From Thermoplasmata archaeon (GTDB lineage Archaea; Thermoplasmatota; Thermoplasmata; GCA-020350865): DNA of 64,000 nt. The position numbers were made by a program, and so were the translations under genes. A model generated the notes under the pieces. It did no database searches. It was not told the DNA's origin and saw nothing but the letters and a program-made list of their open reading frames with translations. Shown in pieces: positions 16,008 through 62,000 of this stretch. Where the stretch lies: the NCBI GenBank assembly GCA_020348445.1, contig CP070751.1:4743778-4807777 (forward strand), written 5' to 3'. Every line of letters begins with the position of its first letter. Positions within the stretch are counted from its first letter, which is position 1.

Positions 16008-19000
16008 TTATTTGTTGGGAGATTTGGGTCTTTCCTTTTGGTTAATCCTATTGCCAGGACTGCTTGTATCTTCCCATGTTACGTTTTGATAAGTGGTCTC
16101 TTCCCCCACAGAATTTACGGGAGGCTCAGGTTGTTCTTGAACGACGATCTGTTGCTGGGCAGGCTCGGGCTCCTTCTTCCAAGAGGCGCTCGCCCTCCAT
16201 CTCTTATATCCTTTGTACATCAATATCAAAATGATCAACAAGATTATTCCTATTATCAAAAAGTTGATGCAAAATGATTGCTCAAACTGGCCAATGAATG
16301 GGAGCTTTTCCCAATCTGTGGGTTCCCGCCATCTATCCTTATCTGTGGGATATTTATCCTCTGCATCACCTACGCCATCACCGTCCGTATCTGGATTCAA
16401 GGGATCTGTTTCATCTTCATCAACGATTCCATTTTGGTTTTTATCCTCGTCGATATCCAGTAGCCCGTCATTGTCGTCATCAGTGTCTCTTATATCCTCA
16501 ACCCCATCTCCGTCCGTGTCTATGATGTCCACGATCACCTGGAGTGTGGATTTATCGGCCTCATTGTCCAAGGCATCGATACCATAATAGATTATGGAGG
16601 TTGTCGAATTTGGAACCTTAAAGGGCGATTCATATATTGTATAACTCGTGCCTCCATCGATGCTGTAAAGTATAGTGGTGCCGTCCGCACCAGAGTCAAA
16701 GGAATCCAGAGTGATGGGAGTGGATGTGGCAATATGGAGTTCATCATTGATGGTGCCATTGGGCTGCCCTACTTTTATTGAGATTTTCGGGGGTGTGTTG
16801 TCGATATAGACCCTCTGGGTGTTTCCAGTTTCGTTGTTCTCTAGATTATCCATGGAGCCCCAGGTGATGGTATGGAAGCCATCGGATTTTCCATCGAGAT
16901 TGAAGATGGTCCCCACAAAGTATTTACCATCCAATGTATACCATGTATGGGCAACACCAGAATACATATCAAATGGCGTTAATGTGAAAGTCGTTTGGGA
17001 GGTGATGTACCAATTGTCGTTATCAGCCATGGGGGATTTTGGTGAGCCAATATCCATATCTGTATCAGGATGTTTCGTGTCAAGGTATATGAGTTGAGTT
17101 TTTTCGGTTTCATTGTTACCCAGGTTGTCATAACTACCGTATTTGATGGTATGAAAACCATCTAAAATCCCGGTCAGATAGAAATTTGAACCCTCATGAT
17201 ACACTCCATCTATGGTGTACCATGTATCAGCGACACCAGAACGTTGGTCAGTTGACGTCATTGAAAACATTGAGGCGTCCGTTACATTCCAATAATCATA
17301 TTGGCTGTCACGATATTTTGGCGAGGTAAAATCGATATCAGTTACAGGACGGGTATTATCCAAAATCACGATTTTTGATTTTGCTGTTTCATTGTTGCCT
17401 AGGTTATCTATGCTGCCATAGGTGATGGTATGAACACCATCATTTAAATCGGAAAGATAGAAAGTAGAGCCTTCGAAATACTCGCCATCAATTGTGTACC
17501 ACGAAGTATACACCCCGGATTTCGAATCAGAGGAAGATAATGAGAACTCAGTATCGGACGAGACATTCCACGTGTCGATTCCCGCTGCCCTGAATTTCGG
17601 TTGGTCGAAACTCAGTGAGGTTGAAGGGAAACCAGCATCTAAAATCACATTCAAGGTATTGCCTGGCTCCGAGTTCCCAAGGTTATCCACGCTACCCCAA
17701 ATTATGGTATGCAACCCCTGTCCTAAGCCAGACAAATTGAAGCTCGTTCCCACATAATAGTTGCTATCAATGAAGAACCATGTGTAATTCACTCCTGAAT
17801 ATTTGTCTGAGGGTATTAGGGTAAATATTGTTGCATGCGTGACGTTCCAGTAATCATCCAAATTGTCGCGATGCTTTGGCTCGCTTATATCATACGGGGT
17901 GTTTGGTGGGGAATCATCGAGAATGACATCCATGAAATTGTACGATTCGTTGTACCCCAGAGTATCCCTGCTTCCCCACGTTAGGGTGTGCAGTCCTTCA
18001 TCAAGACCTGAGAGGGTGAAGGGATTGCCATCGTATTCATGGTATTCACCATCTATTGTGTACCAGGTAAAATCAGCATCATTGGAGATGATCAACACAG
18101 TCAATTTAAAATCAGTTTGGGAAGTTACATTCCAAAGATCGGTGGTGGATTCTCGATACTTTGGTACACCTATGTCCAGTATTGTAACAAGGGATGTGAA
18201 GTTGAGATTCACGATCTCTGGCGGATTTGTTTCGTTCCAACCGAGGTTATCCTGGCTTCCCCAAGTGATGGTGTGCAATCCCTCAGAATAACCAGATAGG
18301 TTAAAGAAATTACCCTCAAAGTAATTACCGTCGATTGTATACCATGTGAAGTCCACACCAGAGTATAGATCGGATGAGTATATCGTAAAGATCGAAAGGA
18401 TTGTCACGTTCCAGTTATCCTCATCATCCTTGCGGTATTTTGGATCGCTTATTGATAGAAGCGATGAGGGGGGTGAATCATCCAACCATATGGTGATGAA
18501 ATTGTCAGTCTCGTTGTTTTCTATTCTATCGTAACTTCCCCAGGTGATGGTATGGGAGCCCTCCACCAAGCCAGATAAAGTAAATGATGTTCCTGTGTAA
18601 AATTCACCGTCTATCGTATACCATGTCAAATCGATACCGGCATTATGAAGAGTAGGTTCGTCCGCCCTAGAAAGAGTAAACTGGGTAGAGGAAGTAACAT
18701 TGCACCCATCGTAAGGTGATAGGGGATGTCTTGGCGTTTCGATGGTCAAGTCGGTAACAGGAGGCGAATCGTCCACCCATACTGTTATCGAGTTGCTCGT
18801 TTCGTTGCTACCAAGGTTGTCCATTGAACCCCAAGCTATGGTATGCGATCCTTCGCTGTAACCTGTTAGATCAAATGTAAAGCCCAGATGATATTCACCG
18901 TCGATGAGATACCAGGTGTAATCGATTCCGGAATTGTGAATATCAGGCTTGTCAGAGCCTGATAATGTAAACTGGGTTGAGGATGTTACATTACAACCTT

Positions 19001-22000
19001 CGTAAGGTGATAGTGGATACCTCGGCGTTCCAATATATAAATTGGTTACAGGGCGCGAATCGTCCACCCATACAACAATTGTATTTCCTGATTCATTGTG
19101 ACCAAGATTATCTTTACTACCCCATGTTATGGTGTGCATGCCCTCACCGTAGGCTGATAAATCAAATGCTGAGCCTGTAAAGTAATCACCGTCTATCGTA
19201 TACCATGTAAAATCGATTCCAGCATTATGGATATCGGGCTTATCAGCTGCTGATAAGGAGAACAGGGTTTCTGACGTCACATTACAACCATCGTAAGGTG
19301 ATAGCGGATATCTCGGTGTTTCAATGGACAAATCGGTTTCAGGTGGTAAATCGTCCAACCAGACAACTATTGTATTTCCTGTTTCATTGTGACCAATATA
19401 ATCGGTGCTACCCCACGAGATCGTATGGGCACCTGCCCCGTAACCTGCAAGGTCGAACAGCGATCCAGCATAGTAATCGCCGTCTATTTTGTACCAGGTG
19501 AAATTTATGTCAGAGTTATGGCCAACTGGTTTATCATTTCCTGATAGCGTAAACTGGGTGCTGGATGTTATGTTACAACTTTCGTATGGTGTTAATGGAT
19601 ATCTCGGTGTTCCCATGTCTAGATCTGTTTGTGGAGGCGAATCATCAACCCAGACTTTTATTGAATTTCCTGTTTCGTTGTTGCCAAGATTATCTTCGCT
19701 GCCCCACAAAATGGTGTGTCCCCCCTCACCGTAGATGGATAAATCAAAAATGGATCCAGTATAATAATCACCGTCTATTACATACCACGTGGAACTGATA
19801 CCAGTGCTGTGAGTTATAGGCTCGTCAGCTCGCGTCAGCATAAACTGGGTGGTTGATGTCACGTTGGAGCCATCATTTGGAGTCAAGGGATATCTTGGCA
19901 GGCCAATGGTCAATTGAGTTTGCGGGGGCGAGTCGTCAACCCAGATCGTTATTGAATTTGCTGTCTCGTTGTGTCCCAAATTGTCCATGCTTCCCCATGT
20001 GATCGTATGCTGGCCCTCTCCATAGAAAGACATATCAAATGCAGAACCAGTATAATAATCGCCGTTGATGGTATACCAGGTAAAATTGATACCAGAGTTG
20101 TGAACATCGGGCTTATCTGATGCTGTTAAGGTAATCTGGGTGTCTGATGTCACGTTGATACCTTCATAGGGGAAGGAAGGATATCTCGGCAAGCCCACCG
20201 ATAATCCTGTTTCTGGGGGTGAACCATCAACCCAGACAAAGAACGAGTTTCCTGTTTCATTGTTACCTAGATTATCGATACTGCCCCACAAAACCGTATG
20301 GGAGCCTTCGCCGTAGGTTGATAAATTGAATGTTGTTCCAATGTATAAATCTCCATCTATGGAATACCATGTGAAGTTCATTCCTGAGTTGTGAAAACCT
20401 GGATAATCTGCACCTGATAATGTAAACTGGGTTTCGTGTGTCACGTTCACATATTCAAATGGAATTTCGGGATATTTTGGAGAACCTATAAAAAGGTTAG
20501 TTGATGGGGGTGAATCATCAAGCCAGACTATGAAAAATTTTCCAGTTTCGTTGTTACCAACATTATCCACACTACCATATGAGATATTATATTTGCCCTC
20601 GATGTAACCTGAGAGGTCGAAGGTGGTACCTTCATAATAATCTGAATCGATGACATACCACGTCTTATTCACCCCTGTTCGTGAATCTGATGAGGATAAC
20701 GATATCTGGGTGCTCGACGTGATGTTCCAGGGATTAAATGTTACTAGGCGGTATTTTGGATCTCCAATAGTGTATGTGGTAATTGGTGGGGTAATATCAA
20801 GATAAACCTGAATTGAATTGGCTGTTTCATTGTTACCCACGTTATCGATGCTTCCGTACATGATCGTGTACAATCCCTCTGCATAGCCTGATAGATTGAA
20901 TTCAAAACCCTCGTAATAATAGGAATCGATGATGTACCAGGAATAATTGGTGCCAGAATATTGGTCAGTGGACTGTAATGTAAAGGTTGTCATGTAAGAG
21001 ACATTCAATATGTCGCCAACGGTTGCTCGAAAGTTCGGCTGCCCTATTACAATGTTCGTTTGCGGAGGTACCACATCTACATTAACGGTCTGAATATTTC
21101 CAGTGGCATTCTGGCCTAGATTGTCCATACCACCCCATGTGAGGGTGTGAACTCCTGGTGTTAGTGTAAAAGGAGCTGAGTACTCGTAATACACCCCATC
21201 GATTGTATACCACGTGAAATTGATTCCAGAGCCATCACCGTCACCATTGTCAACAAGGGTAAGTAAAGTTGTGGTAGAGATATTCCAACTGTCAGTTGGT
21301 TGTTGTCGAAATTTTGGTGTGCCAAATGAAATATCGGTAATGGGTGGTGTGCTGTCGAGGTTGACTTTTATACCCCATGTCTGGAAGTTGCCCACATTAT
21401 CTTCGCTGTACCATAATAAATTGACCTCACCATCTAGAATTCCAGAAAGATTAAATATCAAGTCGTAGTGGGGACCAGAATCAGCAAAATACCAGGTGGT
21501 ACTCATTCCCGAGTACTTGTCATATGGGGATAAAGTGAACAAGGTTTCATCTGTCACATTCCAGGGATGGGAGTCGTGTACCCGATATTTTGGAGTGCCG
21601 ATGGCGATGGGTGTGACAGGTGGAGAGTTGTCCAGGCATACAAATATGTTATTGCCTGTCTCGTTGTTACCCACCATATCCTCGCTACCCCAGGTTATGT
21701 TGTGCAGGCCCTCATCATAGCCTACCAAATCGAATGCCATCCCTTCGAAGTATTCTCCATCTATCGTATACCATGTGAAATTCACACCCTCATAGTTGTC
21801 AACAGCAGACAATGTGAACAGAGTAATCGTGAGGTTCGCGGTGACATTCCAATTGTCCCCGATATTCTCCTTGTATTTTGGATCTCCGATGGTGAGGGTT
21901 GTAACAGGTGGGCCGATATCGGCAACTGTGATATTGACCTCATCAGTATCCCAATTTCCGAAGCTGTCACTGACATTCAAAATCACGGTATAAAACCCGG

Positions 22001-40050: not shown

Positions 40051-40365
40051 GGAGGCACTGGGGTGTTCGAGCTTAAGATATCAGCATATTGTAACATAAC
40101 TCGAACATAAGCCATTTTGCGGGACCCGAGGCTTAAGATTTGATTATATTTCAATTATAAGCGAGGGATAAGCCCTTATGTGGGATGTTCGAGATTAAGA
40201 AATCAGCGTATTGTAACATAACTCGAACATAAGCCATTTTGCGGGACCCGAGGATTAAGATTCAATTATCATTTAAACATAACCGAGGGGCAAGCCCTTT
40301 TGCGGGTGTTCGAGCTTAAGCATCAAGTGATGTATAATTATAACTCGAATACAAAGTGCCCCCAC
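40051..40365. repeat. 2.5 copies of a 122-bp tandem repeat built from two related 61-nt half-units (T1, T2), flanked by tRNA-Trp 3'-end-like sequence
   Basis: TGTTCGAG starts at 40064, 40186 and 40307. CCCGAGG starts at 40125 and 40247. T1 forms a hairpin GTTCGAG-N29-CTCGAAC. T1 copies a and b differ at only a few positions. Confidence 0.7.
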
Positions 40366-40390
40366 GTATTAAAATAATTACAAAACAGAG

Positions 40391-40605
40391 TGGGGGCACT
40401 GGGATTTGAACCCAGATCAGCGGGTTTCCACCGTATAGAGAGCGACTCTATACAAGGTATTTTGGGCTTATTCTTGTGATGGGTCATTGCTCCAGTTAAT
40501 CGTCATTTCCGTTGAGCTAAACACCCAACAAATCGGTAAACCCGTTGGCAATCATTCCCATCTATAACTGGAGCCCGCGAGGATCCCTGACTACCCCATG
40601 CCCCC
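40391..40605 (-). tRNA. tRNA-Trp (anticodon CCA) with a ~142-nt intron at the canonical 37/38 position
   Basis: Exon 1 is GGGGGCA U GGGGUAGUCAGGGAUCC U C GCGGG CU CCA G (anticodon at 40569-40571). Exon 2 is A CCCGC UGAU CUGGG UUCAAAU CCCAG UGCCCCC A. The acceptor, anticodon and T stems all pair perfectly. The intron is ~40426-40567, with boundaries good to +/-2 nt. Confidence 0.85.
40488..40562 (-). ncRNA. Box C/D sRNA embedded in the tRNA-Trp intron, predicted to guide 2'-O-methylation of C34 and position 39 of its own host tRNA
   Basis: The terminal stem is GAUGGG/CCCAUC. The order is C-like AUGAUUG, 12-nt guide CCAACGGGUUUA, D'-like CCGA, C'-like AUGACGA, 12-nt guide UUAACUGGAGCA, D-like AUGA. 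Guide 2 pairs over 10 bp with GCUCCAG plus the first three intron nt, which puts C34 at N+5. Guide 1 pairs with AAACCCG-UG, which puts C39 at N+5. Confidence 0.7.
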
Positions 40606-40877
40606 ACAAAGAGCATGGCCTGGTAGAATTTTTCTCATTTCTTTCTCAACTGCTGCGCTCTCTTTCTTCTTCTCATCTTCTTTTTGCGCCATTTCCATCG
40701 TTGCTGCCCTCTTTTCTTCCAAACTCTTGAACTTCTTTTCATCAGGACTCCTCGTTTTACCAACGGGTGAAAGTGTTTCTGGTACATTTACTTTATGGCT
40801 CTAATATGTGTTTAGAATGCTTAAAGATGGGAAATAATGGACATTCCCAATTATAACGTTATTTTTTGGTTAGTCCC

Positions 40878-43800
40878 TCACTTTTCCTTTCTAGGCCATT
40901 TAAAAAACGCCACCAATGCGATTATGGCAAAGATAACAATGGTTATCAATAATAAAATAAAAGCATCCACTTCTGAGAAACCCTCTGAATCCTTATCCCC
41001 TTCACCTGAAGATCCATCAATAGGGCTATCAGTGTCAGTTGTATCTTCAACTAATTTAATCTTCACACTGTACATAGCCTGATTATCCACATTATCGGTC
41101 ACAATAACGATTATTGTATGTTTGCCCTCGGAAAGTCCAAAGGTCTCCAAATCGTACTCCCAATTTCCATTTATCAAAACCGAGGTGATGTTGATAGGCT
41201 CTTCATTATCGATGATAAGAGCCATTTCCTTGATTCCTGTATCATCAAATGCATTGCCAATAATAGAAATAGACCCACCAACAACCTCGGATTCCTCGTA
41301 GGCTGCAATCTCAACTTTTGGATCCTGGCTATCCACTTCAAACGTTGTACTTGCCTCCTCTATATGGCCTACCTGATCTTGAACCGATATAGTAATGGTG
41401 TGGGTGCCACTTTCCAGCTCCCTAGTTTCCCATAACTTATAGTTCCAATCCCCATCTGAAATCTTCCAGGTGATATCGATCACGGTCTCGTCATCAATTA
41501 TAAGATATGCATTAGTAATCCCCAAATTATCGAATGCAGTTCCGTAGAATTCTATTGGAGAGCCGGCTTTGAATACCTGATTTTCTTCTGAAACAGCGAT
41601 CTCTGTAGAAGGAGATGTGCCGTCTAATATAATCTTTATCCTATCCGAGGCTACATTACCCGAGCCATCTGTGGCTATAACCTCCACATCATGCTCCCCT
41701 TCGCTTGTTGTGTATTGGGTCTCCCAGTTATAGGACCAAAAACCATCCTGCATTATATTTGATGTGATATCTATCTGGATTGTGCTATCTATCACTATTT
41801 CCAGGGATGCTATTTCCTTATTATCTTGGGCAAAACCCGAAAAATATATGGTGTTTCCTTGTTTAAATACATCTTCATCAGAGGGGTCGTCGATTCTTAC
41901 CACAGGTGTCGTTTTCTCTAAAATTCTGATATTCCTTGTAATGTATGCCAGATTTAAGACCTCATCTATTACCCTAATAGTAATTGTGTGCTCGCCATAG
42001 TCCAGGTCATGTGTGTTTATTTTAATTGACCAGGATTCATCCACAAGATAATATGTGATATCGGTTCTGTTGACCTCGTCAGAATCGATAATCATTTCTA
42101 AAGTATCGACCATTATATTATCTGTTGCCGTTCCACTAACAATGATTGTGTCCCCTAGCCAGTAAATGGCACCCTCAAGAGGGCTTTCCACTAAAAGCTC
42201 AGGATTTATGCCGTCTAAGGATACTGTGGTCATATCGGATGCCTTATTACCCGAACCATCTGTTGCCCAAACCTCAATCTTATGCTCTCCCTCTGAAGAT
42301 GAAGAGGGTGCATTCCATCTGTAGGTCCATGTGCCGTCTTCCAGTAGATTTGATATAATATTTACAGTATCATTATTATCAAAGATAAGTTCGAGGGATG
42401 CGATCTCCTCATTGTCAGTGGCTATACCGGCGATATCGATCGTCTCCCCAGGTCGAAAAATCTGACTGTCTGTTGGATTCTGGATTCTGACTTCAGGTGA
42501 AACTTCCTCAAAGACACTGATGGCTTTTGTATCGGAGGCGTTATTTTGTGCTGTATCACTGATTATTACAGTTATTGTGTGATCACCATAACCTATATCA
42601 TCTACATCCATTTCATATGAAAAATGGTCATCAGATAGATAGGAAGTTATATCGGTAAAATTTTGCTCGTCAGAATCTATTATCAATTTTACAGATTCTA
42701 TCCATCCATTATCTGTTGCAGTTCCATTTACAGTTAATGCATCTCCTAACCAAAACGAGTCCCCTTCAGATGGACTCTCTATGTTGAGTACAGGATCAGT
42801 TGCATCCAACAAACTGAAATTTTTCTGCATCATTGAGATGTTCTCATTATCACTTGCCTTGGCCTTGACCATATGAATACCAGGTTTAAACACTGAAGTG
42901 TCTAAGGATAACTCCCATGTGGTAAATGGCTCCTCCCATTCCTCGCTTGTATCTAATGCAGGCATCCAGTTATTCATGTCATCTATATCAATTTCTACCT
43001 TGTCAACACCTTCAGGTCCCCATGCTGTACCCTCGATAATAAATATATCTCCATGAAAAAATTCCTCTCCCTCCAAAGGCTTTTCAAGAACCAATTTTAA
43101 GCTGCTGTAGATATTTACCGTGATATTGATGATTTTCGTTGTAGATTGCGAAAACTCATTGGAGAAAACAGCGTAGTATCTGTCCTCGTTGGGTAGTGTA
43201 AATAAAACATCATTTGAAATCGATCTTTCTTCAACATTATAGGCATCAAATGAAAGGTCATTTGCATAAAGGTTGTAGTTCAATAAATCCGCGATAAAGA
43301 AGTCGATATTACCCGATTGTCCATACGAGTCCCCATGCTCTCCTGTATATACATTTTCAACCTGTGTTATGTGGGCTTCTACATCATATTTTACCTCCAT
43401 TTCGAAGTGTGGATCGACAATCCCCGGAGGTGTGATTTCCTCGTAGTCCAATCTCGGAGCACTCAGAGGTAGATGAAATGTATATGTGTAACTTGCATCA
43501 GCTTCTGAATTTGATATAACCTGAGTCACTCCGTTTATGGGATCGCTTCCAAGGTCGTCTGATTCGGCACTTGACCAGAAATTCCTCTCATCCCCAAGAG
43601 GTATGGTCACATTTCCTGTATAATCAGTTGAGCCCCACGTGGTCGTGGTAAGTAGGTCAGGATTGTAATAGTATTCAGTGGACACACGGACCAAAGCTCC
43701 ATCCACAGGCATTCCAGAGTCGTCCAAAACAGTGGCAGTGTAATTGCATATCTTCGTATATTTTTTTGAAACAGACCAGATGTCGCTGTCACCTCTTGTG

Positions 43801-44930
43801 TTCCAGACCGAGGATATCTTCTTTCCCCAGCCATTCTCATACATCATTGGATTATCCACTGCACCGTCCCAATGGATCCATCTTTTATCCCAGAATTCGT
43901 TCCAAACGTGATCTTCAGCCGTATTGAGGGTACAGGTTGATGGTATCAAACCTGCCCTTGCGATGGCATTTCGCATGTCCTGGTACTCACCGCATCTTCC
44001 ATAGTGCTTTCGATAGATTCTAACAGGTTGTATGGGTCTTTCTGTGATGTCGCTTGTAAATCTCATTGATCCACTGATCCAGCTGTTACACCTCGAGATG
44101 GCCTCCCATAGCGTATATGCTCCCTCTAATTTCTCCTTAAGGAGCGGATAACCCGAATCATTGAAATAGAATAACCAATCCCTCCAGAATTTACCTGTAG
44201 GCGGTGGCACACCGTAGTTTTTGTCAAATGGAGGATCTGTTGTATAATTGTATTCGGGATCCACGTAAGTTGCGAGCTCGTCACTTAACTTCGGTTCCAC
44301 AATATACCAATAGTAAATACCTTTGGGAAGCTCGCAGCTGACATTATCCCTGTCTTTGTAGATCACGGTTGTATAGTCATCCCTTTCCACGATTTCCACG
44401 TATTTGAGATACTGATCGGCATCGTAGATCAACTGGGCATTATGGGTGATAAGCTCTGGAAAGAAGTAATCATCCTGGAGATTCTCGACTGCAGTATGAG
44501 CAATTACAAAAGCAATTTCGTCTATGTATTTCTCATCAGGTGAGTTAAGTATCAGGTTTGCGTATGTGTTCTGGAATTCAGAGGATAACTGGCGGAACTT
44601 AAAGGAGAGATTGCCCCTAAGCCATCTTGGTACCATTGCTAAGGCCTGATCGCAAGTAGGAGGTAGGTCAACTGGAGGTTTTGCTGAAAGTTCATCATCC
44701 CCAGGGTCGAAGTAGATGTAGAACGATTCGCCTGGATCGATTTGAAGAGTTTGTGTGATAGAGGCGAAAAGATCGGATTCTGTCTCATCACTATCTGTGC
44801 TTTCAATGGGGGTTGAATCCTCATCTGAACCTGGATTATCACCTGTTGTGGTACCTGGAATGATGATGTTGGATATCAAAAGCATAATTAGCATCCAAAT
44901 TAACGTGCTCCGATTTTTTGTTGATAGCAT
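40878..44930 (-). CDS. Giant surface protein with an N-terminal transglutaminase-like (papain-fold) domain, about eight Ig-like repeats and a C-terminal TM anchor
   Basis: It has a signal/anchor (LIWMLIMLLISNIIIPG). The transglutaminase-core triad context is HYGRCGEYQDM (43981-44008), EDHVWNEFWD and WIHWDG. There are ~100-aa repeats with GDxIxIxGTAxDNxxIxxLELIxD...GEHxIxVxAxDxxGN. The C-terminus is FILLLITIVIFAIIALVAFFKWPRKEK. Confidence 0.7.
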   Translation of the reverse strand: MLSTKNRSTLIWMLIMLLISNIIIPGTTTGDNPGSDEDSTPIESTDSDETESDLFASITQTLQIDPGESFYIYFDPGDDELSAKPPVDLPPTCDQALAMVPRWLRGNLSFKFRQLSSEFQNTYANLILNSPDEKYIDEIAFVIAHTAVENLQDDYFFPELITHNAQLIYDADQYLKYVEIVERDDYTTVIYKDRDNVSCELPKGIYYWYIVEPKLSDELATYVDPEYNYTTDPPFDKNYGVPPPTGKFWRDWLFYFNDSGYPLLKEKLEGAYTLWEAISRCNSWISGSMRFTSDITERPIQPVRIYRKHYGRCGEYQDMRNAIARAGLIPSTCTLNTAEDHVWNEFWDKRWIHWDGAVDNPMMYENGWGKKISSVWNTRGDSDIWSVSKKYTKICNYTATVLDDSGMPVDGALVRVSTEYYYNPDLLTTTTWGSTDYTGNVTIPLGDERNFWSSAESDDLGSDPINGVTQVISNSEADASYTYTFHLPLSAPRLDYEEITPPGIVDPHFEMEVKYDVEAHITQVENVYTGEHGDSYGQSGNIDFFIADLLNYNLYANDLSFDAYNVEERSISNDVLFTLPNEDRYYAVFSNEFSQSTTKIINITVNIYSSLKLVLEKPLEGEEFFHGDIFIIEGTAWGPEGVDKVEIDIDDMNNWMPALDTSEEWEEPFTTWELSLDTSVFKPGIHMVKAKASDNENISMMQKNFSLLDATDPVLNIESPSEGDSFWLGDALTVNGTATDNGWIESVKLIIDSDEQNFTDITSYLSDDHFSYEMDVDDIGYGDHTITVIISDTAQNNASDTKAISVFEEVSPEVRIQNPTDSQIFRPGETIDIAGIATDNEEIASLELIFDNNDTVNIISNLLEDGTWTYRWNAPSSSSEGEHKIEVWATDGSGNKASDMTTVSLDGINPELLVESPLEGAIYWLGDTIIVSGTATDNIMVDTLEMIIDSDEVNRTDITYYLVDESWSIKINTHDLDYGEHTITIRVIDEVLNLAYITRNIRILEKTTPVVRIDDPSDEDVFKQGNTIYFSGFAQDNKEIASLEIVIDSTIQIDITSNIMQDGFWSYNWETQYTTSEGEHDVEVIATDGSGNVASDRIKIILDGTSPSTEIAVSEENQVFKAGSPIEFYGTAFDNLGITNAYLIIDDETVIDITWKISDGDWNYKLWETRELESGTHTITISVQDQVGHIEEASTTFEVDSQDPKVEIAAYEESEVVGGSISIIGNAFDDTGIKEMALIIDNEEPINITSVLINGNWEYDLETFGLSEGKHTIIVIVTDNVDNQAMYSVKIKLVEDTTDTDSPIDGSSGEGDKDSEGFSEVDAFILLLITIVIFAIIALVAFFKWPRKEK

Positions 44931-45527: not shown

Positions 45528-45696
45528 TCATTTCCTCCCAAGTCTTTTCCTGATTCCTAAAACTCATTTTCGATATATAATACTTTTTGCAATATATATT
45601 CAAATTATACATCACTAAAAAAGTATTAACTTATTTGTATTAATTTTCGCAATTATAAAGTTGAGTTTATGAATTAAAGTATTTAAAAAAACAGAG

Positions 45697-45771
45697 CGGA
45701 CTCGGCGGGATTCGAACCCGCGACATCCAGCTTAGAAGGCTGGCGCCCTATCCATGCTAGGCCACGAGCCC
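45697..45771 (-). tRNA. tRNA-Arg (anticodon UCU), intron-less
   Basis: The minus strand reads GGGCUCG...CCAGC CU UCU AA GCUGG...GCGGG UUCGAAU CCCGC CGAGUCC G. The 7-bp acceptor stem includes G3-U70 pairing geometry G-U. The length is 75 nt. Confidence 0.9.
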
Positions 45772-45856
45772 AACTCTGAATCTGTGCCCAAAATTATGTG
45801 GTAGCTATTAAAAGTTCCCCTTGGGGGAGAAGGAAAAATTGTACCTTAAAGTCGGG

Positions 45857-45917
45857 GTGTTCAAGTTATGATTATACATCAATTTCGTCTTAAGCTTGAA
45901 CACAAACGACGGTCCAC
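45857..45917. repeat. Palindromic T-loop-like element (GTGTTCAAG-N29-CTTGAACAC) plus an inverted copy of the tRNA-Ala 3' acceptor end
   Basis: The 9-bp arms lie at 45857-45865 and 45895-45903. CGGTCCAC at 45910-45917 is the reverse complement of GTGGACCG at 45942-45949 (the tRNA-Ala 3' end). The element is ~80 percent identical by eye to the reverse complement of repeat copy T1c at 40308-40350. Confidence 0.65.
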
Positions 45918-45942
45918 GAATATAAGTATAAAATAAATAAAG

Positions 45943-46032
45943 TGGACCGGAGGGGATTTGAACCCCTGGCCTCCACCAATTTGGCCATCAAAGGATGCCA
46001 AGGTGGCGATCTTCCAACTGATCTACCGGCCC
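45943..46032 (-). tRNA. tRNA-Ala (anticodon GGC) with a 17-nt intron
   Basis: The sequence is GGGCCGG UA GAUC AGUUGGAA GAUC G CCACC UU GGC A [UCCUUUGAUGGCCAAAU] U GGUGG AGGCC AGGGG UUCAAAU CCCCU CCGGUCC A. The G3-U70 pair, the Ala identity element, is present. The intron is ~45979-45995. Confidence 0.85.
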
Positions 46033-46179
46033 GATTGCGATTGTATTCAAATTGTAGGGCCGGTAGGTATAGTGGGGGCGAAGCCACCACGAATATCTAC
46101 CGGCCCGTATTTAATTGATGTCCCATTTGAGGGACGGTAGGGCGAGTGGAGACTTGTTCTCCACGGGGTCTACCGGCCC
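46033..46179 (-). repeat. Two 73-74-nt units, each starting with the first 11 nt of tRNA-Ala and folding into a ~50-nt two-tier hairpin
   Basis: GGGCCGGUAGA starts (minus strand) at 46032 (the real tRNA), 46106 and 46179. Unit B has outer arms at 46097-46106 and 46057-66 (10/10 bp) and an inner stem GUGGUGG/CCCCCAC. Unit C has outer arms at 46170-79 and 46131-40 (9/10 bp) and an inner stem GUGGAGA/UCUCCAC (7/7 bp). Confidence 0.7.
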
Positions 46180-59059: not shown

Positions 59060-62000
59060 CTATATGTCCTTTCCCCCAAAATTAGGTAAAACTTCCTCAA
59101 TCTTAAAAGCATTTTCAGATTCCAGGTATGCCAGAATAAACTCCTCAAAGGGAATACCAGTTCTTATTGACAAAAGGACGATATCTTGGATCCTTGTGAC
59201 GTCCATTGGATGAATTTTAGGATTCGATGTTTTAAAGTCGTTTATTACAGATATTATACAATCGGTATCCTTTTTCAATCGATTTTTAAATCCATATCTT
59301 CTCACAAGTAAAATTGTAAACAAAATCAGCAAAAGCGGCCAGAATATAATTAGGAGAAAGATATTTGGTACTCTAGATGGTTCCCCAGGATCCTCTTCAG
59401 GCTCTATCGAAAATGTTTCAGGTCCTGAGCTGTTCCAGTTACCACTTGTGTCCACAGCCCAGATAGTATATGTGTAATCTCCAAGGAAGTCCGAATCGAT
59501 ATTATAGTACCACTGATTATGGCTTCCTTTCTCCATGGTGACATTCGTCCATGTTCCATCAGCAAGTGTTAGATTTATCCAAACTCCGCCGATTCCCACA
59601 TCATCGAACACACCGACAGTTATGTTTATCATGTCGTCTATGTTAAAACGATTCGGTTTTTCTTTCGGTATTTTAATATCTGGGCCGTCGGTATCCTGTA
59701 TTATAAATGATCCTGAACTTGTATTGTTCCAATTACCACTGGTGTCACAGGCAAAGATTGCATAGATGTATAATCCTAAATCAGTGTACGGTTCCCTAAG
59801 ATACCATCCATCACCTCTGAAGTGACTCAGGCTTTTATTTACCCATGTGCCATTGGGATATCGAAGGTTTATCCAAACTGAATCCACAGCCACATCATCC
59901 AATACATCCACAGATATGTTGACATATCCTTCGTTCTCCTGTGGATCAGGTGTATCAACTAAATCATTAAACCATGGAGAAATGATATCTATTATCGTGA
60001 ACATACCAAGATCAGTAGCATTCCATTGTCCACTTTTGTCCTTTGCCCAAATCCTATATGAGGAAACTCCAGGAATAAAATACGAATTTTCGTAGTACCA
60101 ATTGTAACCAGAACCTGGTACCGTACTTGTATTCACCCAGATATTATTAGGATATACGAGGTTAAGCCATACCTCATCCACACCATCGTAATCCTTCACA
60201 TTGAGGGTTATGTTCACAAAACCGCCAACCACCTGTGGATCAGGATAATCTGTGAGATTCCACAATATGGGAGGAATATCAAGCTTGGTAATTTCAAAAG
60301 TCCCGGGGACTGTCGAGTTCCAGTTGGAACTTGTATCCTTTGCCAAAATTGAGAAAAAATAAATACCTTCGTCTGGGTAAGAGATGTTATAGAACCATTC
60401 ATCCCCTGCTCCCTTATTCATGCTGGTATTTAGCAAACCGCCATCTGGATATGGAATTACAACAAAGACCTCATCCACTGCAATATCATCAATGACCTTC
60501 ACAGATATATTAACAAAACCGCCTATTTCTTGAGGATTTGGATCACTTTTTTCATCCCAAATTAAAGGACCATCAGTGTCTCGGATTACGAAGCTATAAG
60601 AGCCTGTTGTGTTCCAGTTGTAGCTTGTGTCATACGCCCATATCTGATAGGAATAAATCCCTAGATCTATGTATGAGGTGTCGTGATACCAACCAAATCC
60701 TGTTCCTTTAGCCATGCTGATGTTAATCCAAGAACTGTCTGGATAAGTTATATTTATCAAAACCTCGGAAATAGCCACATCATCAATTACATCCACTGTG
60801 ATATTTACAAAACCATCGTTCTCCTGGGGATCAGGGAAGTCGAGAATATTGTTAAATTCAGGTCTTATCATATCTATTATCGTGAAAGTTTCCGGCCCGA
60901 AGACCATTTTATTGTCACTTGTATCGTTCACCCATATTGTGTAGGAATACACCCCCACTACAAAATAGGCTGTATTATAATGCCACTCATTTCCAGTTCC
61001 TTGGGCCATTGTGGCATTATACTGCATACCAATAGGATTTGTGAAATTGATCCAAACTGAATCCACACCCATGTTATCTGTGGCATTTACAGTGATGTTC
61101 ACAAAACCTCCAAATACTTGTGGATCTGGAAAATCGCTTCCATTCCATACAATAGGAGGTACTATGTCGATCTTTATATCAAAAGCACCAGGGCCGCTTG
61201 TATTCCAATTCCCACTTGTATCACTGGCCCAGATCCTATAGACATATGCACCCAAATCTGTATAGGAGGAGTTGTAGTACCATCCACTTCCTGATCCTGG
61301 CTCCATGCTCACATTAATCCATGTGCCGTTCGGGTATGTGAGATTAATTAGAACCTCATCAATTGCAACATCGTCTATTATTTCCACCGTTATGTTTACA
61401 GAACCATTTATTTCTTGAGGATCTGGAGTATCATCAAGATTATTAAATTCTGGGCCATCCGTATCTTCCACAAGGAAGCTCTCAGGACTTGTGCTGTTTA
61501 GGTTATTGCTTGTATCATTTGCATAAATCGTATAAAGATAGGTGCCTAAGTCAGAATATATCGTGGTATAAAACCATCCATCCCCCAATCCCTTATCCAT
61601 TGAAACATTGAACCATGAGCCATTTGGATATGTGATGTTCACCCATACTTCATCTACTCCCACATCATCTGTCACATCCACTGTGATATTGACAACACCA
61701 TTATTCTCCTGTGGATCTGGAAAATCGAGAATGTTATTGAATATTGGGCCATCAGTATCCTGGATTGTGAAGGTACCTGGGCCAGTTTTATTCCAGTTGG
61801 AACTTGTGTCCTTTGCCCACACTGTATAGGAATGAATCCCCAAATCCAATAAAGAGTTATTATAAAACCACTCATCCCCTATTCCCTTTTCCATGCTCAC
61901 GTTAATCCAAGAGCTGTCAGGATATGTTATGTTAACCCACACACCGTCAACACCAACATCATCAATTACATCCACAGTGATATTTACAAAGCCTCCGTTC

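Follow-up and report, generated by a model that had tools for sequence, protein, structure and literature searches.

Palindromic repeat units just 3' of tRNA genes in uncultured sediment archaea (Thermoplasmata)

A previously undescribed repeat lies just 3' of tRNA genes in uncultured sediment archaea of the Thermoplasmata. The copy at the tRNA-Trp gene of the DNA analysed here, a stretch of 64,000 nucleotides referred to as the window, very probably belongs to a lineage-specific family of palindromic repeat units that are anchored on tRNA genes. Read on the tRNA strand, a unit starts at the tRNA end with an AT-rich spacer of 23-24 nt, made up of a T-tract and then a TATA-like half. Next comes the proximal arm, in which the final 9-13 nt of the tRNA gene, up to and including N74, are repeated in inverted orientation; it is followed by a mismatched internal loop of 3-4 nt and by a universal 45-nt core consisting of a 9-bp stem and a 27-29-nt loop. 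Beyond the core lies a direct copy of the T-stem/acceptor 3' strand (the distal arm). The whole unit can be folded as a hairpin with a stem of ~18-20 bp, the outer part of which is the adjoining tRNA's own acceptor sequence. From proximal to distal arm, the unit is ~71-73 nt long, the size of a tRNA.

The module at tRNA-Trp consists of the following features, given by their positions in the window:

40391..40605, minus strand: tRNA-Trp(CCA) gene with a 142-nt intron at position 37/38, identified using ARAGORN with introns allowed
40366..40389, minus strand: AT-rich spacer of 24 nt, TCTGTTTTGTAATTATTTTAATAC on the tRNA strand
40355..40365, minus strand: proximal arm, an exact 11-nt inverted repeat with 40390-40400
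40306..40352, plus strand: universal core, copy 5 of the array and the copy nearest the tRNA (nhmmer E = 1.1e-10)
40063..40305, plus strand: tandem array of four further units (Tandem Repeats Finder, repeat search and nhmmer)
40051..40062, minus strand: distal arm, bordering the array on the side away from the tRNA and copying the acceptor 3' strand and T-stem in direct orientation

The tRNA-Trp gene was missed by ARAGORN at its default settings and by Rfam at gathering score. Its intron contains a stretch complementary to the anticodon loop, in the style of a C/D-box guide intron, and gave a weak match to the sR3 C/D-box RNA. An earlier note on this DNA had described AGTGCCCCCAC (40355-40365) as the exact reverse complement of GTGGGGGCACT (40390-40400), with an AT-rich, 24-nt spacer between them that carries a T-tract on the tRNA strand. 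Both descriptions were confirmed. In tRNA-Trp(CCA), GTGGGGGCACT is complementary to N74 and A73, to the acceptor 3' strand of 7 nt and to two T-stem nucleotides, and the proximal arm is the same tRNA end inverted. On the tRNA strand, the proximal half of the spacer is a T-tract of the archaeal terminator type and the distal half is the TATA-like TTAATTWWATWC. The note's hairpin is also present, but with a stem of 9 bp (40306-40314 with 40344-40352) rather than the 7 bp at 40308-40350 that had been proposed. This hairpin, GTGTTCGAG-N29-CTCGAATAC, has a 29-nt loop (CTTAAG...GTGATGT...ATAA) in the standard orientation, in which the motif strand is opposite to that of the tRNA. The idea that CTTAAG is a restriction site avoided by the genome was rejected based on its frequency (10 seen versus 7.4 expected).

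In total, tRNA-Trp is followed by five cores in tandem, with a 61-nt period nested in a 122-nt period according to Tandem Repeats Finder. Good cores occur at 40063-40108 and 40185-40230, and degenerate units whose arms do not pair (CCCGAGG...GCGAGGG) at ~40124-40184 and ~40246-40305. The distal arm, GGAGGCACTGGG, is identical to the gene sequence, GGGGGCACTGGG, at 11 of 12 positions, and it occupies the same position as in loci L001, L013, L014 and L030.

A second module in the window lies behind tRNA-Ala:

45943..46032, minus strand: tRNA-Ala(GGC) gene (Rfam tRNA model, 57.2 bits; ARAGORN with introns allowed)
45918..45941, minus strand: spacer of 24 nt, TTTATTTATTTTATACTTATATTC on the tRNA strand
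45907..45917, minus strand: proximal arm, in which CGGTCCAC (45910-45917) is the exact inverted copy of GTGGACCG (45942-45949)
45857..45903, minus strand: universal core (E = 4.4e-12) whose 29-nt loop, 45866-45894, is inverted

This tRNA gene contains a 17-nt intron and encodes a G3:U70 pair. The stems and flanks of its core are in the standard register, and the distal arm (~45846-45856) is decayed. Overall, the Ala element (45857-45903) is 81% complementary to the Trp core across 47 nt, and the earlier note had viewed the entire element as flipped between the two genes. Upon alignment, the reverse-complement relationship held for the loops, which match at 23 of 29 positions as reverse complements versus 13 of 30 directly; a score of 23 was reached in none of 2000 shuffles. 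The 9-bp arms and the flanks, on the other hand, are in direct orientation: the stems match directly at 8/9 and 7/9 positions, as do the right flanks (ACAAA, the inverted tRNA-end copy, AC and GAAT/GTAT). Thus, the 'flip' at tRNA-Ala is confined to the loop, which is inverted between arms that keep their direct orientation. Across the family, the loop is in the standard orientation in ~37 cases and flipped in 4 independent cases, and each of the 4 flipped copies has at least one decayed arm. Intrastrand template switching is known to invert small hairpins.

Further tRNA flanks in the window carry related features:

45596..45695, minus strand: decayed module behind tRNA-Arg(TCT) (alignment and sequence)
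46057..46179, minus strand: two hairpins upstream of tRNA-Ala that mimic the 5' end of tRNA-Ala (repeat search; fold z = -6.7)

In the Arg module, the spacer (45671-45695) is intact, and the remnant of the core (~45596-45659) is in the flipped orientation. The remnant of the proximal arm (45660-45670) departs from expectation solely by G/C to A/T transitions. Having thus lost a G/C arm at tRNA-Arg while the arms of intact modules are near-perfect, the family appears, at the sequence level, to maintain its arms against decay. The hairpins upstream of tRNA-Ala (A, 46057-46106; B, 46131-46179) each have a 10-bp outer stem formed by nucleotides 1-10 of the tRNA and their complement. They are set apart by 24-nt spacers, one between the hairpins (46107-46130) and one leading to the tRNA (46033-46056). 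Orthologues occur in L005, L006 and L009, with the inner stem changed on both sides. Similar hairpins mimicking the 5' end are found in the leaders of Ala, Leu and Gln tRNAs.

The AT-rich loops raise the question of chance resemblance among AT-rich intergenic sequences, whose probability we judge to be negligible. Beyond the shuffles described above, the two strands of the window together contain 7 occurrences of the motif GTTCRAG-N20-35-CTYGAAY, versus 0.16 expected, and all matches to the core HMM in the 64 kb, up to an E-value of 7, are at the Trp and Ala flanks. Moreover, 42 distinct copies occupy the same position elsewhere. Chance is refuted by these data. The earlier note had called for further copies; within the window such copies lie at 40063-40108 and 40185-40230, and others were found in 38 loci elsewhere. 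They establish a family rather than a chance AT-rich similarity.

The 42 distinct cores, or ~70 when diverged tandem copies are included, were found in at least 5 Thermoplasmata genomes and in sediment metagenomes. The 38 fetched loci comprised 23 genome loci obtained using a degenerate core pattern, all from Thermoplasmata or Methanomassiliicoccales MAGs, and 15 metagenome loci obtained with the core pattern. Metagenome assemblies break at the tRNAs. In every locus whose flank was read, the core was 3' of a tRNA gene, either ~38-44 nt from the gene or within a tandem array behind it. At least 12 amino-acid specificities are represented, including Trp, Leu, Glu, Ala, Gly, Tyr, Pro, His, Arg and Ser. 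Among tRNAs that had not been picked by the pattern, ~4/9 lacked a clear module. Units are frequently arranged in tandem; such arrays occur in L011, L015, L018, L020, L029, L030 and L031 as well as at tRNA-Trp in the window.

The geometry of the units bears out the proposal that a repeated palindrome sits at a fixed place behind tRNA genes with its stem, spacer length and position conserved. The distance from the tRNA end to the arm was 23 nt in 13 and 24 nt in 14 of 31 loci. Within this spacer, positions 6-9 were TTTT in 22-28 of the 31 loci, and the last position was C in 28. In most loci, the proximal arm and the tRNA end form an inverted repeat of 9-13 bp without mismatches. This repeat includes N74, which lies outside the mature tRNA, and the arm tracks this nucleotide: of the orthologous Ala-TGC genes, that of L005 has T and that of L006 has C at N74, with a matching difference in the arm.

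The core stem has the 9-bp consensus GTGTTCRAG/CTYGAACAC, the conservation of core positions being in part an artefact of collecting copies by exact pattern, as diverged cores exist. The R/Y pair of this stem was G-C in 30 copies, A-U in 12 and discordant in none. Diverged cores likewise remain paired despite changes on both sides, as in CTTTAAG/CTTAAAG and CCCTTCAA/TTTGAAGGG. The outer stems are similarly well paired, with 182 of 195 pairs being Watson-Crick. Between genomes, the arms of intact modules are near-perfect and the spacers and loops have largely diverged. For example, the orthologous copies in L014 and L030 have loops that are ~70% identical and spacers that are ~55-60% identical. 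Such divergence of orthologous copies along with their genomes indicates vertical descent rather than repeated insertion.

We considered whether the units are decayed tandem duplicates of tRNA genes, i.e., pseudo-tRNAs with interiors that drifted to AT-richness. Consistent with this, the unit is tRNA-sized, it ends in an authentic T-stem/acceptor 3' strand, and its stem contains a T-loop-like GTTCGA. Nevertheless, the 5' arm does not copy the tRNA 5' strand but is exactly complementary to the 3' strand. In the Ala module, for example, the arm reads GGACCGG and not GGGCCGG with the G3:U70 pair. The 5' arm further reaches into the complements of N73-N74 and of the T-stem, and a single core is common to more than 12 unrelated tRNAs, its R/Y variant being independent of the tRNA T-loop base. 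The arm sequences contradict a pseudo-tRNA origin, which is thus very improbable. Similarly, templating of the core stem from the tRNA T-loop was rejected as the base at R57 was uncorrelated with the core variant.

A mobile origin has more in its favor. The units might derive from a mobile element directed at the 3' ends of tRNA genes, either as its footprints or as non-autonomous derivatives, through integrase attachment-site accretion (CIME-like), through casposase- or Cas1-like insertion with a target duplication of ~14 nt or longer, or through a target read by base pairing; the persistence of the units would be due to an enzyme acting in trans. For casposons of Thermoplasmata relatives, insertion at a tRNA 3' end generates a 14-15-bp duplication. 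More generally, tRNA 3' ends are classical integrase targets (Williams 2002, as cited in PMC9897764). In the units described here, direct repeats of the tRNA 3' end (14 nt, from T-stem to N74) bracket an insert of ~72-85 nt, and the repeat reaches 26-27 nt, including the trailer, in L009. Units are stacked in tandem, like accreted attachment sites. Their presence varies at syntenic tRNAs: in the window, a module is present at Ala and the Arg module is decayed, and in L009 the Arg module is intact and tRNA-Ala has none. In L010 and L015, one core is flanked by the arms of two different tRNAs. Finally, a second family, with the core AGGATGAAAGG...CCTTTCTATCC, lies between some tRNAs and a duplicated segment running from the T-loop to the 3' end, a layout expected from insertion at the T-loop.

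The genes and the structure of the insert argue against such a footprint. No Y1/RAYT transposase, integrase or Cas1 was found in the 30 ORFs of the window or among the protein families shared between the flanks of the 38 loci. Indeed, 29 of the 30 ORFs had no such Pfam match, and the thirtieth (1350 aa) matched Ig-like and transglutaminase domains. Copies of the core were absent from viral contigs, phage records and plasmids, and an autonomous element with the same ends was seen neither there nor in the window and the 38 loci. The insert includes a tRNA-specific inverted arm and is therefore not portable to more than 12 different tRNAs; since each tRNA has its own flanking arms, these could not travel with a transposing unit. 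In addition, the two ends of the insert do not form an inverted repeat, and the orthologous copies in L014 and L030 diverged with their genomes. On balance, we consider the footprint explanation rather unlikely.

The strand-specific features of the units bear on another explanation, namely that they are small-RNA genes or cis-acting RNA switches in which the core is a universal protein- or ligand-binding hairpin and the arms are tRNA-specific. One arm would lie antisense to the 3' end of the pre-tRNA, spanning the tRNase Z site, and the other would mimic that end. Pairing of the proximal arm with either the tRNA end or the distal arm would then control or report 3' maturation. Alternatively, release of the hairpin might yield an acceptor-stem minihelix comparable to a functional 3' external transcribed spacer. 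Guide RNAs share this design of a universal core joined to variable arms that match the target, and the three copies (tRNA end, complement and second copy) have the layout of an alternative-pairing switch. The complement spans N73-N74(-N77) and thus corresponds to the precursor rather than the mature tRNA. Orientation is strongly biased, with decay in flipped copies. Further, the distal spacer half is similar to the TATA boxes found in real tRNA promoters of these loci (TTTATATTCG in L008 and TTATATATTCC in L020, for example), the unit from proximal to distal arm has the size of a tRNA, and hairpins that mimic the 5' end occur in Ala, Leu and Gln tRNA leaders.

Evidence for an RNA strand was sought in the stems, and neither mismatches nor folding energies carried a signal by which to assign one. 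The mismatches in the outer stems included 4 G.T and 3 A.C, giving no bias toward either strand, and folding energy favored one strand in just 12 of 27 cases. No covarying columns were found inside the loop, and the deviations in the arms are not compensatory. The distal arm does not keep the discriminator and N74, so that the end of a minihelix is not conserved. The module is also preceded by a conserved T-tract. With a TATA box ending 1-2 nt before the arm, the usual archaeal TATA-to-start distance implies that transcription would start ~22 nt inside the unit and destroy the hairpin; a spacer promoter starting transcription at the arm was accordingly rejected. In the window, Rfam at gathering score returned tRNAs only, and at an E-value threshold it added only weak matches to 'permuted tmRNA'; the units belong to no Rfam family. 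A C/D or H/ACA guide sRNA was rejected as well: CUGA is absent, UUGAUGU is no more than a partial box, the ACA is inside the stem, and Rfam gave no match. Readings of the loop as a K-turn, C/D-box or H/ACA element were dismissed for their incomplete boxes. In searches of sequencing runs, the organisms were matched only in DNA runs (sediment and mangrove metagenomes) and in no RNA run, and the coverage of RNA runs compared with the window was limited to the tRNA-Trp exons of relatives. Overall, a small RNA or switch seems unlikely.

The explanation that we tentatively prefer, while rating it below an even chance, is that the units are REP/BIME-like extragenic palindromes on tRNA ends, with arms matched by hairpin-templated copying, that would act as a 3' boundary or as a back-up cassette for termination and processing. 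In this scheme, an extragenic DNA palindrome would sit behind the tRNA's own T-tract terminator and, given that position, would be mostly outside the tRNA transcript. Hairpin-templated (quasi-palindrome) copying and tandem duplication would hold the arms identical to the tRNA end, which is itself under selection; template switching over the 24-nt loop is a plausible means of such upkeep. A host factor would recognize the core, which would account for the conservation of the latter. The unit would thereby provide a cis-acting, polar 3' boundary to highly transcribed tRNA genes. On read-through, it would rebuild the signal of a tRNA end, with its acceptor-type helix and discriminator and, where a unit has retained it, its T-rich trailer, yielding a back-up termination and processing cassette. 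The core-binding factor, the boundary or terminator role and the upkeep of arms by template switching are all inferred. As a T4 tract follows the distal arm in only 14 of 41 units, the back-up terminator idea fits just part of the family. A pure DNA-boundary role needs no tRNA-specific arms, which the copying mechanism, and not function, would account for. Moreover, both the bias in orientation and the spacer's TATA-like half would be compatible with a transcribed small RNA as well.

More far-reaching versions may be envisaged, although we regard them as distinctly doubtful: the modules would be genome-wide cis-antisense switches, one per tRNA and sharing a single sensor hairpin, or the templated product of an unknown enzyme. 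As switches, they may gate the 3' and 5' maturation of most tRNAs and so constitute an archaeal global control of tRNA supply. In the enzymatic version, the tRNA gene or precursor may serve as both ruler and template for inverted and direct copies of the terminus placed 23-24 nt outside both ends. The modules may then represent a new class of target-anchored element, comprising a universal factor-binding hairpin and arms written from the adjoining tRNA end.

tRNA genes are usually viewed as compact units of a promoter and a T-tract. In this archaeal clade, most have a flank built by rule, with a 23-24-nt spacer, a copy and an anti-copy of the end and a common hairpin, and some additionally have mirror-image hairpins upstream. 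If functional, the modules would represent an unknown layer of archaeal tRNA gene insulation, termination or maturation control, together with a core-binding factor. If selfish, they would offer a rare example of a repeat maintaining its own match to an essential gene, and would also be a source of rearrangement, as suggested by the tandem arrays and by single cores bearing the arms of two tRNAs. In either case, pseudo-3'-ends and intron-rich tRNAs mislead tRNA finders, as with tRNA-Trp here, and cause metagenome assemblies to fragment at tRNA loci.

Several known systems share parts of this architecture. The modules resemble permuted tRNAs and two-piece tmRNAs in the order of T-arm, acceptor 3' strand, short stretch and acceptor 5'-type strand. 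This order, with the short stretch as a loop, explains the weak matches to the Rfam model 'tmRNA_permuted' at both tRNA ends (27.8 and 15.2 bits versus a gathering score of 47). The modules differ in having no D-arm, anticodon arm or bulge-helix-bulge, and the upstream tRNA is complete. A split or permuted tRNA, or a BHB substrate, was rejected because the internal loops are symmetric (3x3 or 4x4) and the repeat between tRNA end and arm is bulge-free. As to intrinsic terminators, a hairpin is present, 14 of 41 distal arms are followed by T4, and a conserved T-tract lies in front of the hairpin. In chloroplast non-coding DNA, small inversions of hairpin loops recur, and are common in structures of this kind, while stems and flanks stay; these are a mutational phenomenon and not an element family, and they account for the 'flip' alone. 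The tyrT distal repeats of E. coli (the rtT region) each carry the 3' end of tRNA-Tyr and are likewise tandem units behind a tRNA, each ending in a copy of its 3' terminal sequence. In contrast to the modules, rtT is a single bacterial locus that is not known to have a universal core common to other tRNAs or an inverted copy at a fixed distance.

Among mobile systems, attL/attR sites, CIMEs and casposon duplications similarly present direct tRNA 3'-end repeats of ~14 nt or more past an intact gene, sometimes serially. The far end of the insert does carry such a repeat (T-stem and acceptor 3' strand). Nonetheless, instead of element genes the repeats enclose a non-coding insert of ~72-85 nt that contains an inverted copy of the target and recurs at more than 12 different tRNAs, and there is no integrase or Cas1 gene. 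The modules are MITE-like in being small, non-coding and present in many copies per genome, with 9-bp terminal inverted repeats. Where a MITE would have a direct target-site duplication, however, the core has inverted copies of the tRNA end on its flanks. The placement of the module, 23-24 nt from the tRNA end, is exact to the nucleotide, and no parent insertion sequence was found. The earlier suggestion of a REP- or MITE-like palindrome, or of an integrase or transposase substrate, consequently stands as regards a repeated palindrome at a fixed position relative to the tRNA, and departs from the REP and MITE definitions.

The closest parallel in role is to REP/BIME sequences, which are RAYT-mobilized in bacteria. 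These too are short, conserved hairpin repeats in 3' extragenic DNA, often arranged in tandem or alternating arrays, that are kept over long periods and have probable structural roles in termination, stabilization and topology. By definition, a REP is an imperfect palindrome of ~20-40 nt with a 5' GT[AG]G head and is dispersed in many copies over all kinds of extragenic region, and RAYT, a Y1 HUH transposase, is its partner. The tRNA modules are archaeal, begin with GTGTTCRAG without a GTAG, and occur only behind tRNA genes in the 64-kb window and in the flanks read in the 38 loci; no RAYT was present among the 30 window ORFs or the families shared between loci. They also have a large loop of 27-29 nt and outer arms copied from the adjoining gene. 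Thus, the tRNA modules resemble REP/BIME sequences in role but stand outside that family.

The 11-nt inverted copy of the tRNA-Trp end described in the earlier note was borne out: 40355-40365 on the + strand (AGTGCCCCCAC) and the reverse complement of 40390-40400, the end of the tRNA-Trp(CCA) gene, are identical, and the 24 nt separating the two stretches read TCTGTTTTGTAATTATTTTAATAC on the tRNA strand. The gene gave no match using default ARAGORN or Rfam at the gathering score. The adjoining hairpin was the final unit of a five-unit array.

Features of the three tRNA loci (window positions)
40051-40062: distal direct copy of the tRNA-Trp acceptor 3' strand and T-stem at the far array end, 11/12 match
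40063-40352: five tandem units at tRNA-Trp, 61-nt period within a 122-nt period
40306-40352: hairpin adjoining the tRNA-Trp inverted copy, GTGTTCGAG-N29-CTCGAATAC
40391-40605, - strand: tRNA-Trp(CCA) gene, 142-nt intron (ARAGORN with introns allowed)
45697-45771: tRNA-Arg(TCT), with a decayed module and a normal 25-nt spacer
45857-45903: element 3' of tRNA-Ala quoted in the earlier note
45943-46032, - strand: tRNA-Ala(GGC) gene, 17-nt intron
46057-46106 and 46131-46179, - strand: two 50-nt hairpins upstream of tRNA-Ala, 24-nt spacers

The tRNA-Trp intron (40426-40567, 142 nt) carries TAACTGGAGC, complementary to the anticodon loop, has a weak C/D-box sR3 match and is conserved in size and sequence in the fetched loci L001, L014 and L030. 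By these features, it looks like the known C/D guide intron of tRNA-Trp in Euryarchaeota. Directly upstream of the gene, 40606-40800 (- strand) is highly conserved between genomes, likewise in L001 and L014, and could encode a small lysine-/glutamate-rich peptide; one example, at 40591-40722, is a 43-aa ORF extending into the tRNA gene.

The family was searched for using a degenerate core pattern over reference genomes, metagenome contigs, viral contigs, and plasmid and phage records. Further copies of the core, a hairpin of approximately 45 nt, were indeed found: 23 reference-genome loci, all in Thermoplasmata or 'Methanomassiliicoccales' MAGs (CP070739.1, JAZGAR01, CBDUXN01, CBDVCK01), and 15 more in metagenome contigs. 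The pattern was absent from the viral contigs and from the plasmid and phage records. An HMM built from 42 distinct cores gave 73 matches, revealing 2-4 tandem units on the same strand in most loci; across the window, it matched only the Trp and Ala flanks.

A single architecture recurred throughout the printed flanks, in keeping with the earlier claim that stem, spacer length and position are conserved. On the antisense strand of the tRNA, a copy of the acceptor 3' strand and T-stem (the distal arm, sometimes with the trailer) is followed by the core, 1-4 nt, the reverse complement of the acceptor end (the proximal arm), AC (or AT), a 23-24-nt spacer and the tRNA gene. The gap from tRNA end to proximal arm was 23 nt in 13 of 31 loci and 24 nt in 14. 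Modules occur at tRNAs for Trp, Leu (three anticodons), Glu (two), Ala (three), Gly, Tyr, Pro, His, Arg and Ser, many with introns, some of these in the T-loop. Among tRNAs present by chance rather than selected by the pattern, about 5/9 had a recognisable module, some with diverged cores whose stems still pair despite several two-sided changes. We conclude with high confidence that the units constitute a family of palindromic repeats that is anchored on tRNA genes, specific to the lineage and not described before. In L010 and L015, a single core carries arms of two tRNAs (proximal of Pro(TGG) or Trp type, distal of Pro type), implying that modules at separate tRNA loci have recombined with one another.

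The earlier reading of the Ala element as a flipped Trp element held for the loop only. The two are 81% complementary over 47 nt. The loops match at 23/29 positions as reverse complements and 13/30 directly, with none of 2000 shuffles as good, whereas the stems (8/9 and 7/9) and right flanks match in direct orientation. Thus, the inversion is confined to the loop. With seven occurrences of the motif in the window against 0.16 expected, the resemblance is far above chance, and coincidence has a negligible probability. Module orientation nevertheless matters: the motif lies on the strand opposite the tRNA in approximately 37 copies, against four independent flipped ones (tRNA-Ala in the window, L021, L026, which is the same as L035, and L036), each with at least one decayed arm. 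The tRNA-Ala locus has one unit only, its far arm decayed. At tRNA-Arg(TCT), the core remnant is flipped, and every departure of the arm from its expected complement is a G/C to A/T transition.

Upstream of tRNA-Ala, the 10-bp outer stems of both hairpins consist of tRNA nucleotides 1-10 and their complement. Such hairpins (a copy of nt 1-10(-17), an apical part, the complement, 22-26 nt, then the tRNA) precede tRNA-Ala, Leu, Gln and perhaps Tyr in the window, L005, L006, L009, L013, L002, L011 and L018; at least an upstream 5'-end copy was present at 10/33 tRNAs. In Ala hairpin B, the inner stem has changed on both sides from genome to genome (GTGGAGA/TCTCCAC, GTGGCAG/CTGCCAC, GTGGAGG/CCTCCAC). 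In sequencing runs X1, X2 and X6, contigs of other organisms sampled in the same sediments place a similar tRNA-Arg next to a similar tRNA-Ala (window 45771/45943), only 7-9 nt apart, so related tRNA pairs without any module exist.

Together, the arms and core fold into a long hairpin. Its outer stem is 8-12 bp and its core stem 9-10 bp; a symmetric, purine-rich internal loop of 3-4 nt lies between the two, and the terminal loop comprises approximately 27 nt. The inverted repeat of tRNA end and proximal arm is perfect over 9-13 bp in most loci. It always extends through N74, a base absent from mature tRNA, and the proximal arm changes with N74 (C or T), including between the orthologues of L005 and L006. 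The proximal arm matches the real tRNA end more closely than it matches the distal arm. Because the arm complements the 3' strand (GGACCGG in Ala) instead of copying the 5' strand, decayed tRNA duplicates are a very improbable source of the modules. One core-stem pair was G-C in 30 copies, A-U in 12 and discordant in none. Some loop positions were fixed by the search pattern; outside these, the A after CTTAAG is kept and ATTGATGT is partly conserved, with no internal covariation in the loop among the 42 distinct cores.

The spacer consensus, T-Y-W-A-W-TTTT-...-TTAATTWWATWC, opens, immediately behind the tRNA, with a T-tract terminator of archaeal type; its distal half is TATA-like and resembles the TATA boxes that genuine tRNA promoters carry in the fetched loci. 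Mismatches among 195 outer-stem pairs comprised four G.T and three A.C, and neither strand folded better overall (12/27). Deviations in one arm were not compensated in the other. These results, the T-tract ahead of the module and the way the arm follows bases absent from mature tRNA point to a structure maintained at the DNA level. A small-RNA gene or cis-antisense switch is an unlikely alternative. Organisms carrying the family appeared in DNA runs on sediment samples (marine, estuarine and mangrove) and in none of the RNA runs searched; in relatives, the RNA contigs stop at the 3' end of tRNA-Trp. The GC-rich arms are retained despite clear AT-biased decay, between genomes that have for the most part diverged in their spacers and variable loop positions, indicating that modules are maintained and are not fossils. 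The perfect arms, paired changes and loop inversions would all be accounted for by hairpin-templated ('quasi-palindrome') copying.

The footprint of a mobile element targeting tRNA 3' ends is a somewhat unlikely origin. Against it, 29 of the 30 window ORFs had no transposase, integrase or Cas1 Pfam match, the thirtieth (a 1350-aa protein) matched Ig-like and transglutaminase domains, and protein families common to the flanks of the 38 loci were housekeeping genes. That protein (40878-44930), adjoining tRNA-Trp, has Ig-like (Big_7) domains and a transglutaminase-like core. Tandem repeats of 291-294 nt, at 18895-19487 and 61626-63968, lie within very large ORFs (2708 and 1631 aa); all three products look like large surface proteins.

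We tentatively favor, at somewhat below even confidence, a REP/BIME-like extragenic palindrome sited behind the tRNA terminator, with arms copied from the selected tRNA end and a core recognised by a putative host factor, which may act as a polar 3' boundary. For read-through polymerases, the rebuilt acceptor-type helix, discriminator and T-rich trailer (where the unit keeps one) would form a back-up termination and processing cassette. A T4 tract follows the distal arm in only 14/41 units, which is a weak point of this mechanism.

A second palindromic family with another core (AGGATGAAAGGAG...CACCTTTCTATCC) lies between tRNA and core module in L007, L009, L011, L021 and L037, flanked by the T-loop/T-stem reverse complement (GGGATTCGA) on one side and a duplicated T-loop-to-3'-end segment on the other. 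Non-canonical introns, missed by default tRNA finders, are frequent in tRNAs of the clade, particularly within the T-loop with a duplicated TTCGAA segment (L009, L011, L016, L017, L019, L020, L007). A motif, TCGAGCAGG(C/T)G..., recurs distal to modules in L003, L006, L013 (tRNA-Gln), L031 and L036; it is followed by another CTCGAACA and tRNA 3'-end copy in L003 and L006, and overlaps a small-ORF start (MGQKETRQSLLEK...) on the opposite strand in L031 and L036.

We found no described counterpart in the literature, and know of none, for arms copied from the adjacent gene, a nucleotide-precise spacer and, at some tRNAs, an upstream mirror arrangement. The tRNA-anchored family has some features in common with REP/BIME and MITEs, the kinds to which the earlier note likened it, and with attachment-site accretion, the duplications that casposons leave at tRNA ends, the repeats distal to E. 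coli tyrT and chloroplast hairpin-loop inversions, but for each of them it lacks some of the defining features.
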